Positions 38,397 through 62,957 of a stretch of 62,957 bases of DNA are shown in pieces (positions within the stretch are counted from its first letter, which is position 1; each line of letters opens with the position of its first letter). The notes under the pieces are model-generated. The model ran no database searches and was not told the origin of the DNA. It saw only the letters and a list, made by a program, of their open reading frames with translations. Source of the DNA: Candidatus Saccharimonadota bacterium (GTDB lineage Bacteria; Patescibacteriota; Saccharimonadia; Saccharimonadales; SZUA-47); the NCBI GenBank assembly GCA_020428465.1, contig JAGQMY010000006.1:1-62957 (forward strand). The letters are read 5' to 3'. Made by a program: the position numbers and the translations under genes.

Positions 38397-39200
38397 TTAT
38401 TTGCTTTTTGGCAATGGGATAAGTACACTCGTTGAATTCTTGTAGTGCAAATAGTTCTTGTCACTACCCCACTTTTTGTCTGCTGCTTTTTCAAGAAGTG
38501 GAATCCCACTAATAAATAAAAGCATGGATGTTATAAATAAAGGACTAGCTAGTGCTATATAAACTTCTGGGGAATCAATCCAGTGCGCAACCGATAAGTA
38601 AACGCCCAACCACATTAGGATTTCGCCAAAATAATTAGGGTGTCTCGAATAAGCCCATAAACCTGAATCTATCCATTTGTTTTTATTAGCTGGATTCTTA
38701 ATAAATTCAAATTTTTGTTTATCTGCAAGTGCTTCGATCAAAATACCAAAAGCCGAAATAAGAAGTCCAAGAATTACCATTGATGAAATTTTTGTGTTAC
38801 CAGTTGCACTAGATAATAGGACAGACGGCAACATCACGACCCAGACTGTTATTGCCTGTAGTAACCAAAATCGAAGAAATTTCCAAAAGTATTCTCGCAT
38901 GCCATCAAATCTTTTATCACGACCCATGAAATTTATTCTAATTAATAAATACGTACCTAGCCTTATGGCCCAAATTACGATTATTGAATTAACCAGGATT
39001 CGCACACTGTCCAACTTTGTGGCCGTAATAGTGTTATAGATAACTATACCTATGAACGTTAAAGCGTATGATATATCAGTAAGTTTGTCTGTTTTATTAC
39101 GAAAAGCAATTAAAAACATTACCAAATTTAGAACTAGTGCGAAAATTAATGCAAATAACATATTTTTATTATACATTCGCTTAACTAAACTTTTAATCAT
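38397..39200 (-). CDS. DUF1295 / steroid 5-alpha-reductase-like membrane protein
   Basis: YSRHPNYFGEILMWLG motif. Multi-TM. The ORF-track start at 39209 is TTG; an ATG lies at 39200. Confidence 0.7.
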   Translation of the reverse strand: MIKSLVKRMYNKNMLFALIFALVLNLVMFLIAFRNKTDKLTDISYALTFIGIVIYNTITATKLDSVRILVNSIIVIWAIRLGTYLLIRINFMGRDKRFDGMREYFWKFLRFWLLQAITVWVVMLPSVLLSSATGNTKISSMVILGLLISAFGILIEALADKQKFEFIKNPANKNKWIDSGLWAYSRHPNYFGEILMWLGVYLSVAHWIDSPEVYIALASPLFITSMLLFISGIPLLEKAADKKWGSDKNYLHYKNSTSVLIPLPKSK

Positions 39201-39310
39201 TAATAACAAGTCAAATTTAAGCTATGCCCTTAATGCAAACATGCCTAAGATGTTTTGTCTGATTTCAGAGTAAATATACCGTGATAAACAGGAAATATTA
39301 GTTTTGCTCA

Positions 39311-39485
39311 AGAGGGAGGGATTCGGTCACCTTCGGCGACCCCCGAACTTCATTCTTGGCAACAAGTTGCCAGAAGAAGATTCGCTTCCGAACTGCCACC
39401 GGCAGTTCTCACCCTATCGGGTTCGAATTCGCAATTCACAATCCTTCATAGCTCACCCGTTGTTAACGGGATGAGCGACGAAGGA
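39311..39485 (-). repeat. tRNA-3'-flank structured element: terminator-like hairpin, inverted T-arm-like piece, 68-nt two-hairpin core, and a 15-nt copy of the tRNA-Ser(UGA) 3' part
   Basis: 39311-39325 (agagggagggattcg) equals 39492-39506 inside the tRNA. The core 39341-39408 is 55/68 identical to the reverse complement of 60092-60159. Confidence 0.75.
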
Positions 39486-39575
39486 TGGCGGAGAGGGAGG
39501 GATTCGAACCCTCGAGACCCTTGCGGACCTGCCAGTTTTCAAGACTAGTGCACTAAACCACTATGCGACCTCTCC
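39486..39575 (-). tRNA. tRNA-Ser(UGA), CCA encoded
   Basis: Manual fold: acceptor GGAGAGG, anticodon loop CUUGAAA, long variable arm, T arm GAGGG-TTCGAAT-CCCTC. Confidence 0.9.
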
Positions 39576-59218: not shown

Positions 59219-59264
59219 AAGTATTCCTTTTTGTTACTAGTTATATATTATCACTATAGAAAAA

Positions 59265-59318
59265 TCCTCCATAGCTCCGTAAATACGGAGCGACAGAGGA
59301 TGGCGGAGAGGGGGAGAT
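59265..59318 (-). repeat. displaced tRNA-Ser(CGA) 3'-end copy (18 nt) with its conserved terminator hairpin
   Basis: 59301-59318 (tggcggagagggggagat) is identical to 59454-59471. The hairpin at 59265-59300 is the reverse complement of 60001-60035 with 2 substitutions and 1 indel. Confidence 0.8.
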
Positions 59319-59453
59319 GAGAAGGACCTAAATAATCTGTGCGCCGAGCATGTTAACCCGGGCAACAGACTATTTAGCGAACTCGCCTCGAGAATTCGAA
59401 TCTCTTCTCCAAAAGAAGAAAACGACCAGGATAAAACCTGGTCGCCCTTCTCC
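59319..59453 (-). repeat. 135-bp insert between tRNA-Ser(CGA) and its displaced 3'-end copy; carries its own terminator and an inverted degenerate tRNA-Ser copy
   Basis: Terminator CGACCAGG-UUUUAU-CCUGGUCG plus a U-tract (59411-59444). Then GGAGAAGAGATTCGAATTCTC...GCGCAC...GGTCCTTCTC mirrors the tRNA in reverse orientation. Confidence 0.65.
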
Positions 59454-59544
59454 TGGCGGAGAGGGGGAGATTCGAACTCCCGATAGAGTTGCCCCTATAC
59501 TGCATTTCGAGTGCAGCGCACTAGACCAACTATGCGACCTCTCC
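59454..59544 (-). tRNA. tRNA-Ser(CGA), CCA encoded
   Basis: Manual fold: acceptor GGAGAGG, anticodon stem CTGCA/TGCAG, loop CUCGAAA, long variable arm, T arm GGGAG-TTCGAAT-CTCCC. Confidence 0.9.
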
Positions 59545-59725: not shown

Positions 59726-59802
<77 letters not shown>

Positions 59803-60194
59803 ATAAAAATGACTCAAGTTATCTTGGGTCTTTTTTATTGGACCATCCAGTATCTTTGAACGTACGACCGTAGGCGAGAAAGCTCGGGGAGCTTTCGAGT
59901 TTTCCTTGCTTGGCCACCCGAGATGCTTTAGCTCTCGAGGGTGCGAAAAATAATAAGTTTCTCGTTCAATCCGCCAGATGTCGGAGTATCGGGTGTACCG
60001 TCCTCCGTCGCTCCGTGTTTACGGAGCATGGAGGATTTTACGTTCTATACAGTTTTCACGCTATCGAGCTTCAGCTGAAGGGAGTACATGAGAATGTCCG
60101 GTGGACATTCGCAAGGAAACCTTCTTCTGGCAACTTGTTGCCAAGAACGAAGTTTCGGGCCCGCGCTTGCGTGGGCAAATCGTATCGGGTGTAC
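59803..60194 (+). repeat. nested tRNA-3'-flank insertions at tRNA-Arg
   Basis: 3'-end copies at 59986-59999 (14 nt) and 60176-60194 (19 nt). Inverted tRNA pieces at 59855-59869 (15 nt, T arm) and 59938-59948 (5' end plus flank). Displaced terminator hairpin at 60001-60035 plus TTTT. 68-nt core at 60092-60159. Confidence 0.75.
59811..59836 (+). terminator. intrinsic terminator after tRNA-Arg
   Basis: GACTCAAG-TTAT-CTTGGGTC followed by TTTTTT. Confidence 0.75.
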
Positions 60195-60261
60195 TACCAT
60201 CTTTCGTAACATTCTATGTGGAGTAATAGGGGTTTTTAGATTGTTTTGATACTCTTTATTC

Positions 60262-62718: not shown

Positions 62719-62957
62719 TGGCTCAAGAGAGAGGTGAAAAAGTCCAGTGGACTTTTGCAAGACCGGAAACGCTGCGCAAATTATTGCTAGAGCTGAGGTG
62801 GGGTCGCGGAATTTGGCTTTAGCCAAATATCTGTGACTTCGTTCGAATCCCGTCCCGTGATCACGAAAAAACGTCTTTGAAAACAAGTTTTCAAGAGTTT
62901 GTTTCCTTGCAAAATGCCACAAGCATTTATCACCCACGCAAAGCACTCAATGTGCTT
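62719..62957. repeat. further copy or copies of the tRNA-flank element family, running off the window end
   Basis: 62874-62930 (tctttgaaaacaagttttcaagag + tttgtttccttgc + aaatgccacaagcattt) parallels the core at 39351-39408. An inverted partial arm lies at 62737-62769. A T-arm-like gttcgaatcc lies at 62841-62850. Confidence 0.55.

Follow-up and report, generated by a model that had tools for sequence, protein, structure and literature searches.

Small structured repeats are a known general kind of element, as are tRNA-targeted insertions in which the tRNA is restored. We describe here a structured core, in a module directly 3´ of a tRNA-Ser(UGA) gene, that shares properties with both. Like the IS200/IS605-derived PATEs and the REP/BIME sequences with their RAYT transposases, which are non-autonomous repeats mobilised as single-stranded DNA, the core is ~100 nt in length, has no ORF and is present in many copies per genome. 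It has hairpins at both ends, with helix P1 starting 4 nt from the 5´ end and helix P4 at the 3´ end, and P1 and P4 have similar loop-proximal GCC/GGC and GC/GU pairs. Further likenesses are one-strand folding with G.T pairs, the lack of a target duplication made by the element, and the occurrence of nested copies and inverted pairs. Unlike PATE/REP sequences, every core lies within tRNA-derived sequence in an orientation fixed to that of the tRNA; the core swaps two target nucleotides for U...C and conserves its long central hairpin; its left-flank motif is just G-U, not a defined tetra- or pentanucleotide; and no cognate HUH transposase was identified when the ORFs within 3.5 kb were clustered.

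The T-loop and the anticodon loop are the classic tRNA sublocations for tyrosine integrases. Like tRNA-targeting integrative elements and their integrase-less derivatives, which include cis-mobilisable elements, the modules that carry the core duplicate the tRNA 3´ end and restore the tRNA together with a terminator, use T- and anticodon-loop targets, accrete in tandem and can carry cargo (locus L003). Unlike those elements, the modules are typically 150–200 nt and gene-less, the core interrupts the att-like T-arm, an inverted tRNA copy is present, and upstream modules duplicate the 5´ part of the tRNA and bring a promoter. Archaeal non-canonical tRNA introns are similar in their cloverleaf positions and in the presence of several inserts per tRNA-like sequence; by contrast, the host of the core is never a complete tRNA, an intact gene adjoins it, there is no bulge-helix-bulge, and the host organisms are bacterial. 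Like integron attC sites and the CTX phage attP, the core conserves its structure and not its sequence, folds on one strand only, and has inverted repeats by the recombination point. Unlike attC, which is one long hairpin, the core is a three-helix junction with a consensus that lacks RYYYAAC/GTTRRRY boxes, and neither cassette ORFs nor an integron integrase were seen. In the families that we checked, we did not find a three-helix element in the tRNA loops of duplicated fragments, an inverted tRNA copy, two mirror-image module types, or restriction to one candidate phylum.

The module behind tRNA-Ser(UGA) and other copies in the window

The window, by which we mean the whole 62,957-nucleotide (63-kb) stretch of DNA that was analysed, contains genes for tRNA-Ser(UGA) (39486–39575, minus strand), tRNA-Ser(GGA), tRNA-Ser(CGA) (59454–59544, minus strand) and tRNA-Arg(GCG) (59726–59802, plus strand). 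The module directly 3´ of the tRNA-Ser(UGA) gene consists of the following parts.

39486–39575, minus strand: intact tRNA-Ser(UGA) gene, CCA encoded (ARAGORN; Rfam tRNA, 57 bits)
39442–39485, minus strand: long terminator-like hairpin that abuts the CCA end of the intact tRNA (fold, −26.8 kcal/mol)
39419–39430, minus strand: inverted (reverse-complement) T-arm remnant GAATTCGAACCC (sequence reading)
39411–39416, minus strand: forward T-stem 5´ strand plus U54 (UAGGGU), the left flank of the insert (covariance model alignment)
39325–39410 (about 39325–39411), minus strand: structured core (covariance model, 109.3 bits, E 3.7e-19)
39391–39407, minus strand: helix P1 with triloop GGU, after junction GAGA (covariation)
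39344–39384, minus strand: helix P3, a long bulged hairpin, after junction UCGGAAG (covariation)
39325–39341, minus strand: helix P4 with a GAA triloop and a conserved G.U pair, after junction GG (covariation)
39311–39325, minus strand: displaced tRNA-Ser(UGA) 3´ fragment, C56 to the acceptor 3´ strand, without CCA (exact 15-nt repeat of 39492–39506)

The layout of the locus is tRNA, hairpin, inverted T-arm remnant, T-stem with U54, core, and displaced tRNA 3´ end. The core is ~87 nt long on the minus strand, has three helices, and has an RNA fold z-score of about −2 to −2.9. The first C of the displaced 3´ fragment doubles as the closing base of P4, and the chance of an exact 15-mer repeat between 39311–39325 and 39492–39506 is ~4e-6. 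At this locus the inverted copy is reduced to the 12-nt piece listed above, and the displaced 3´ end stops before CCA. We found no gene in the module (39311–39485), where the overlapping ORFs are only small mechanical calls of 56–73 aa. The terminator-like hairpin belongs to a family found in a repeat search of the window, and a separate search gave a 43-nt match at 91%; hairpins of the same type (TCCTYCGTCGCTC...GAGCTATGRAGGA) also lie 3´ of tRNA ends at 59262–59300 and 59998–60040.

A preliminary description of this DNA had noted the terminator-like hairpin, an inverted T-arm-like piece and a 15-nt copy of the tRNA's own sequence, and had placed between the last two a core of two hairpins. 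The folding energy of the hairpin, the reverse complementarity of 39419–39430 to the T-arm and the exact identity of the 15-nt repeat all bear out the first three observations. Both hairpins of the core are likewise present, but its extent has to be revised, a third conserved hairpin (P4, 39325–39341) having been left out. Beyond that first reading, we found that the core interrupts the T-loop of a duplicated tRNA fragment, that the inverted T-arm piece is the remnant of an inverted tRNA 3´ part that recurs across loci, and that the 15-nt repeat is the displaced tRNA 3´ end.

The covariance model described below detected four copies of the core in the window. The other three, together with related modules, are listed here.

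60089–60176, plus strand: second core, behind tRNA-Arg(GCG) (covariance model, 90.9 bits)
60093–60109, 60116–60156 and 60159–60176, plus strand: helices P1, P3 and P4 of the second core
60077–60089 and 60176–60199, plus strand: flanks of the second core, namely a forward T-stem copy and the displaced tRNA-Arg 3´ end
60036–60072: inverted copy of the tRNA-Arg 3´ part, immediately upstream of the second core (sequence)
59839–60040, plus strand: earlier tRNA-Arg module, with a structured insert unrelated to the core (sequence)
59300–59453, minus strand: module of the same architecture behind tRNA-Ser(CGA), with a different structured insert of ~65 nt (repeat family, sequence)
62842–62937, minus strand: third core (78.7 bits, E 2.3e-13)
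62730–62822, plus strand: fourth core, degenerate, tail-to-tail with the third (42.7 bits, E 1.5e-6)

tRNA-Arg is followed by two modules in tandem. The earlier one contains an inverted T-arm copy, an exact 15-mer at 59855–59869, as well as a third copy of the tRNA-Arg 3´ end (~59985–59999) and a long-hairpin terminator. In the tRNA-Ser(CGA) module, the displaced tRNA 3´ end lies at 59300–59323. Neither the tRNA-Ser(CGA) insert nor the first tRNA-Arg insert has homologues among the loci that we sampled. The genes that neighbour the cores of the window are ordinary (DUF1295, an ABC ATPase, an ion-channel-like protein and an HTH-HAD protein).

Comparison of the tRNA-Ser(UGA) and tRNA-Arg(GCG) cores had suggested that they are related: 39341–39408 had been aligned by hand to the reverse complement of 60092–60159 with 55 of 68 positions identical, and our recount agrees. 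A repeat search independently recovered an ungapped 76-nt match at 80% between the two copies, and a 27-mer common to both occurs twice in the window (none expected, 100 shuffles). The three compensatory pairs reported for one stem, CTG/CAG versus TGT/ACA, are real (39393–39395 with 39403–39405). Four further differences are compensatory at the base of the long hairpin (39344/45 with 39383/84), such that 10 of the 13 differences between the two cores, located in five base pairs, keep the pairing.

A covarying fold found almost entirely in Saccharibacteria

We scanned database contigs, taking one genome per species, with two patterns, one matching the exact hairpin apex and the other anchored at the 5´ end. 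The exact-apex scan returned five further copies, all from Saccharibacteria and all adjoining tRNA genes. The 5´-anchored pattern, which left the long hairpin (P3) and the third hairpin (P4) free, returned more than 118 loci among the matches listed, often several per genome. All but two of the listed loci were labelled as Saccharibacteria or as related Patescibacteria/unclassified; the exceptions, labelled Gallionella and Bacillota, had no family member on inspection. Overall, the number of Saccharibacteria genomes in which we saw the core is at least about 85. A covariance model trained on 79 distinct copies identified 114–115 members at 68–111 bits among the sampled loci, and no sequence in 379 kb of control loci scored above 19 bits. 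The proposal that the Ser and Arg copies form one family thus holds on a much larger sample.

We searched for the core among described sequences. A scan of the window against Rfam 15 at the gathering score returned the four tRNAs only, and a scan of 39250–39500 with E up to 10 returned chance matches only (Xist, JPX and a snoRNA). Apex-anchored and 5´-anchored patterns gave 0 matches in the 2.9 million viral contigs of IMG/VR. In the literature on Saccharibacteria/CPR tRNA introns, T-loop insertions, structured RNAs and repeats, we found no description of the core. The element, with its three hairpins and ~90 bases (87–91 nt) and its absence from Rfam, looks previously undescribed.

The consensus reads, in order, G-U, the junction GAGA, P1 of 7–8 bp with an RGY triloop, the junction YGSAAR, P3 of 17 bp with bulges and the tip C-U-N-K-G, the junction GG, and P4 of 7 bp with a GAA triloop. 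Alignment columns 15–41 were fixed by the scan pattern; hence, conservation in these columns is not evidence. The preliminary description had argued from two copies that the stems covary, and the 79 distinct copies amply support this: pairing is kept in 97.6% of cells, versus 78.6% when partners are shuffled and 28–46% when partners are slid, and 19 of 31 pairs have double changes (450 double-change cells, versus 137 in shuffles). RNAalifold, unaided, recovered the same helices, with compensatory changes in 21 of 33 pairs. The strongest mutual-information pairs were all helix pairs, and a mutual-information search for tertiary pairs or pseudoknots returned helix pairs only, plus an alternative GNRA mini-hairpin register. 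In the third core of the window (62842–62937), compensatory changes extend to the segment of the helix that the scan pattern had kept constant. Downstream copies, although they lie behind an intrinsic terminator, are paired to the same degree as upstream copies (98.3% versus 97.8%).

Within the helices, G.U and U.G pairs together number 168 versus 28 for A.C and C.A, which indicates folding of the tRNA-sense strand alone, be it RNA or single-stranded DNA. A particular G.U pair of P4 persists in about 85–90% of copies. The left flank G-U is near-invariant (G in 112 of 113, U in 110 of 113); the unpaired purine-rich junctions GAGA and GG are conserved, and a GNRA-like GCAA/GAAA segment is present. 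The AACAAGTT centre of the long hairpin, which the preliminary description had emphasised, is conserved only here and in a small number of other genomes; in the family as a whole, by contrast, the tip of this hairpin covaries and varies freely. The broader proposal that the folded form is under selection, and is not junk, stands on the larger sample: there are many further copies, and the substitutions in their stems are compensatory rather than random. The core is a well-supported nucleic-acid fold, with strong covariation over more than 100 sequences, that is not in Rfam.

Insertion into duplicated tRNA fragments

Each core interrupts a partial tRNA copy, and an intact tRNA of the same kind lies 36–97 nt away. 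The orientation of the core is that of the nearest tRNA in all 107 delimited copies. The modules are of two types. In downstream modules (n = 46), the intact tRNA ends 66–97 nt upstream of the core, and the tRNA's own 3´ end (C56 to CCA) resumes directly past the core. In upstream modules (n = 41), the core directly follows a copy of the tRNA 5´ part, in many cases together with its leader, and the start of the intact tRNA lies 36–82 nt past the core. The full downstream plan is tRNA, intrinsic terminator with a stem that reaches CCA, inverted tRNA positions ~76–44, a short loop, forward positions ~44–54, core, positions 55–76 and the native terminator. The inverted ~76–44 copy in the spacer scored above the 95th percentile of shuffles in 34 of 42 downstream modules, and it is closer in sequence to the intact tRNA than to the fragment. 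The core can be used to flag pseudo-tRNA fragments that could mislead tRNA annotation or binning of candidate-phyla-radiation genomes.

At the insertion site, the core replaces two nucleotides by U...C. The commonest site is the T-loop, at G53-UU-C56, where the register of the T-stem halves that flank the core is ambiguous at U55/C56. Other sites are the D-stem/anticodon-stem junction (GAG-CA-CC), the D-loop, the anticodon loops of tRNA-Pro(GGG) and tRNA-Leu, and the variable loop of tRNA-Thr. The preferred target is GG(G/U)U^CG. G-U is present at the left flank in >97% of copies, with GGGU^CG preferred, and we found no longer left-flank motif; the short target motif alone does not account for the tRNA specificity.

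Duplicated fragments are widespread around the tRNA genes of the sampled loci. For 51 of 158 tRNAs, a second copy of the 3´ end lies no more than 320 nt downstream; for 40 of 158, the 5´ end is repeated upstream; and 82 of 158 tRNA genes, over half, have a duplicated fragment on at least one side. Even among tRNAs with no adjoining core detected by the pattern, about a quarter have a duplicated fragment. Divergent cores or other insert families are carried by ~28 of the tRNAs with duplicated fragments, and some of the other inserts in the same scaffold position share a hairpin of the P1 type, GCC-RGY-GGC. The host tRNA fragments decay, and the neighbouring gene stays intact. The same tRNA can have the same module type across species (tRNA-Lys(UUU) downstream in six, tRNA-Gly(GCC) D-arm upstream in four). 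Saccharibacteria genomes are about 1 Mb with little spare DNA. The recurrent pairing of tRNA and module in such compact genomes suggests that the scaffolds are old and maintained by vertical descent, and is a hint of some function for the host.

The insertion sites in the D-arm, anticodon loop, variable loop and T-loop, with up to 2–3 inserts per tRNA-like sequence, resemble those of archaeal non-canonical introns, raising the idea that the core is an intron, archaeal-type or self-splicing, of functional tRNA genes. We consider this extremely unlikely. The host copy always lacks its 5´ or 3´ part, and an intact gene for the same tRNA adjoins it; Rfam gave no group I or group II signal; and the 5´ junction is the unpaired GAGA and the 3´ boundary lies within P4, which is not a bulge-helix-bulge arrangement. 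In-silico excision of 114 cores, at several boundaries, restored an ARAGORN-detectable tRNA once, and that case is doubtful, effectively refuting the idea.

The same setting bears on whether the modules could be scars or miniatures of integrase-driven elements that target tRNAs, with the core as an att-site arm by the crossover and the tRNA repeat as attL/attR. Copies of the tRNA 3´ end flank the inserted DNA as direct repeats, the restored tRNA has a terminator of its own, the T-loop and anticodon loop serve as targets as they do for tyrosine integrases, modules have accreted in tandem behind tRNA-Arg, and the repeat-to-repeat length ranges from ~150 nt to 4.5 kb, in the latter case with cargo genes. 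However, no integrase is present inside any module or inside the 4.5-kb island of L003, and the core does not adjoin an intact att core but falls within the T-arm, which it divides, so that tRNA sequence flanks it to the left and right. Insertions into the D-arm and into other cores do not suit tRNA att sites, duplication of the tRNA 5´ part and leader in upstream modules does not fit, and covariation that includes G.U pairs is unexpected for a double-stranded protein-binding arm. The core was also on no phage or viral contig (IMG/VR). Taken with the repeats, these observations make an integrase-derived origin distinctly unlikely in our assessment.

Turnover, transcription and possible origins of the core

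We observed several features of the kind expected of a mobile element. At five loci (L091, L092, L130, L157 and L167), a core lies inside P4 of another core at GGGU^CG, in agreement with the preferred target. One tRNA-Leu is associated with five cores within 2.3 kb, and its pseudo-copy has been struck in both the anticodon loop and the T-loop. Tandem duplicated units (L088), tail-to-tail pairs (62730–62937 in the window, L078 and L136) and truncated copies also occur. For 13 of 56 cores (0.9 expected), the nearest relative lay in the same genome, but for only 1 of 50 (1.6 expected) did it lie at the corresponding tRNA site of another species; this kinship of the sequences indicates turnover or gene conversion inside genomes. 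Identity between the copies of one genome is just ~78%, but their pairing is ~98% in downstream and upstream modules alike, which suggests selection on structure in place.

Whole modules differ between strains. In a closely related strain, from one sludge metagenome, 19 nt correspond to 320 nt of the window that include the whole module, and in another contig the native terminator runs straight into the T-arm of the intact tRNA, without the tRNA-Ser(CGA) module of the window. At L003, a 4.5-kb cargo island lies between tRNA-Glu and a core followed by an exact 22-nt tRNA repeat; the island contains no recombinase. We found no free, circular or excised forms in the assembled DNA contigs, only this strain-level replacement of whole modules.

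To look for an enzyme, we took the 577 ORFs that lie within 3.5 kb of any of 107 cores, clustered them, and sought families that recur near many different tRNAs. No recombinase, transposase or reverse transcriptase was linked to more than 4 of the 107 loci. Beyond housekeeping genes, the clusters included large serine recombinases at four loci and an HTH protein with a LAGLIDADG-like motif at three, the motif match being weak (I-DmoI, E 0.5). Neither protein is encoded in the window, and both are too rare to be the driver.

We tentatively favour, at close to even confidence, the reading that the core is an insertion element, non-autonomous and dependent on its structure, which works as a folded single strand and survives only in redundant tRNA fragments. 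The folded strand that is recognised and moved would be the tRNA-sense strand, either as single-stranded DNA on which a trans-acting recombinase or transposase operates, or as RNA copied back to DNA. Its landing sites would be exposed G-NN-C(G) sequences in tRNA genes, mostly in the T-loop between U54 and C56, with the D-arm, anticodon loop and variable loop as further sites. An interrupted tRNA is useless and insertion into a working copy would be lethal, so the core would persist only in redundant pieces. In downstream modules, the intact tRNA with its own terminator is followed by the inverted 3´ part and then by the insert-bearing forward fragment, which keeps the native terminator. In upstream modules, the 5´ fragment with the native promoter bears the insert; next come a new promoter-like spacer and the intact tRNA. 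The partial duplication, along with the inverted copy, may have arisen by Campbell-type integration of a small circle bearing a core-interrupted tRNA part, or by template switching at the palindromes of the terminator and T-arm. The modules offer a test case for how a selfish insert coexists with an essential single-copy gene that is rebuilt with its own terminator or promoter, the interrupted piece being kept. If a mobilising enzyme does read the folded strand and a short target, the core could represent a compact site-directed insertion system.

The core might instead be a structured RNA that benefits the host within tRNA precursors, in the 5´ leader when upstream and in a read-through trailer when downstream. 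The pseudo-tRNA arm would then be a scaffold or processing signal, and the RNA would bind a protein or ligand, or serve tRNA maturation or regulation. The conserved GAGA and GG junctions, the GNRA-like GCAA/GAAA segment, the conserved G.U pair and the freely covarying stems would suit such a role, as would the filling of the same tRNA sites in many species with pairing kept at ~22–27% divergence. RNA data, in the form of assembled contigs that carry no strand or end information, also bear on this. RNA-derived contigs ≥97% identical to Ca. Saccharimonas aalborgensis span the core, the spacer and the start of an intact tRNA-Lys; at this locus (L127), RNA contig depth is 5–13 over 743–926 and zero over the flanking coding DNA. 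At least one upstream module is thus transcribed together with its tRNA. Core-like sequences are also present in four wastewater metatranscriptomes. By contrast, the upstream core of L113 has no RNA coverage, and downstream copies lie behind strong intrinsic terminators without a promoter of their own, with one partial read-through contig the only RNA seen for a downstream module. Contig depth reflects expression poorly, and some of the signal may stem from carried-over DNA. Nested cores, truncated copies and pile-ups are unexpected for a functional gene, host tRNA fragments decay beside a preserved intact gene, and unrelated inserts can fill the same site. On balance, we regard a host-beneficial RNA as rather unlikely; should the core prove to be a functional RNA, it would define a class of tRNA-linked RNAs restricted to an uncultivated phylum.

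A further reading, which we judge very unlikely, is that the core is a self-targeting single-stranded element of a new kind, homing to loops that are exposed in tRNAs or in tRNA genes. It may be a small catalytic RNA that inserts by reverse splicing and is then fixed by reverse transcription, or the modules may be integrated, permuted copies of a rod-like circular replicon of ~200 nt. The tRNA 3´ part, terminator and inverted copy form one long hairpin, and hence a replicon strand would mimic the 3´ half of a tRNA. Judging by base complementarity, the 3´ strand of P4 could act as an internal guide, since it is complementary to the preferred target GGU^CG.

Duplicated tRNA fragments and their trailers in the window

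Two modules, each a duplicated tRNA fragment carrying an insert, and a conserved long hairpin (TCCTYCGTCGCTC ... GAGCTATGRAGGA) lie behind tRNA genes in the window:

59300-59453 (-): module behind tRNA-Ser(CGA), with the same architecture as the core-bearing modules
59839-60040 (+): first of two modules in tandem behind tRNA-Arg(GCG)
39442-39485, 59262-59300 and 59998-60040: long hairpin, also present at the comparison locus L002

The tRNA-Ser(CGA) module consists, in order, of a terminator, an inverted T-arm copy, a forward copy, the displaced 3' end and the long-hairpin terminator. Its structured insert of ~65 nt is unrelated to the three-hairpin core, and the module is absent from a related strain in the sludge metagenome (run X1). 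The first tRNA-Arg(GCG) module carries a third type of insert, together with an inverted T-arm copy that is exact over 15 nt (59855-59869); the 3' end of tRNA-Arg is also present there in a third copy. Different tRNAs of this genome, and one tRNA in another genome, have the long hairpin 3' of their CCA end; the hairpin is a repeated tRNA-trailer element in its own right.

In the dominant related strain of run X1, 19 nt (GTAGTTGTTTATAGCTTAT) replace the window's 320 nt at 39166-39485. Therefore, the whole region behind tRNA-Ser(UGA) is an indel hot spot.

Clustered cores and other insert families

Cores also occur in close groups, at the end of the window and at the comparison locus L157:

62730-62822 (+) and 62842-62937 (-): two additional core copies, tail-to-tail, at the window's end
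L157 1-2320 (-): five cores in 2.3 kb around tRNA-Leu(UAG)

No intact tRNA for the tail-to-tail pair (62730-62937) is visible within the window; on its left, the better copy is flanked by sequence that resembles an anticodon arm and T-stem. At L157, a pseudo-copy of tRNA-Leu(UAG) bears cores in both its anticodon loop and its T-loop, and the fragment downstream of tRNA-Leu(UAG) holds a nested core.

Within the same scaffold, the T-loop of the duplicated fragment also hosts other insert families (loci L142, L147 and L172; L081, L099, L161, L139 and L069). One non-core group starts with a hairpin, GCC-RGY-GGC, that resembles the first core hairpin (P1), and another recurs at tRNA-Phe, tRNA-Arg(GCG) and tRNA-Ser(GCU).

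Protein genes and cargo near modules

Protein-coding sequence accompanies the modules at several comparison loci:

L097 3571-4233, L119 7322-7972 and L145 6789-7421: gene for a 220-aa protein, between tRNA genes near modules
L003 2134-6781: 4.5-kb island between tRNA-Glu and a core plus 22 nt that repeat the 3' end of the tRNA exactly

The 220-aa protein combines an N-terminal HTH with a LAGLIDADG-like motif (GLGLWIGEGS), and matches I-DmoI weakly (E 0.5); it is a possible free-standing homing endonuclease. Genes for large serine recombinases lie ≤3.5 kb from cores at different tRNAs (L080, L104, L132 and L144); their presence there is probably unrelated and due to prophages or islands that integrated at tRNA clusters. 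The L003 island contains no integrase; its cargo is an ABC transporter along with several small ORFs of no known function.
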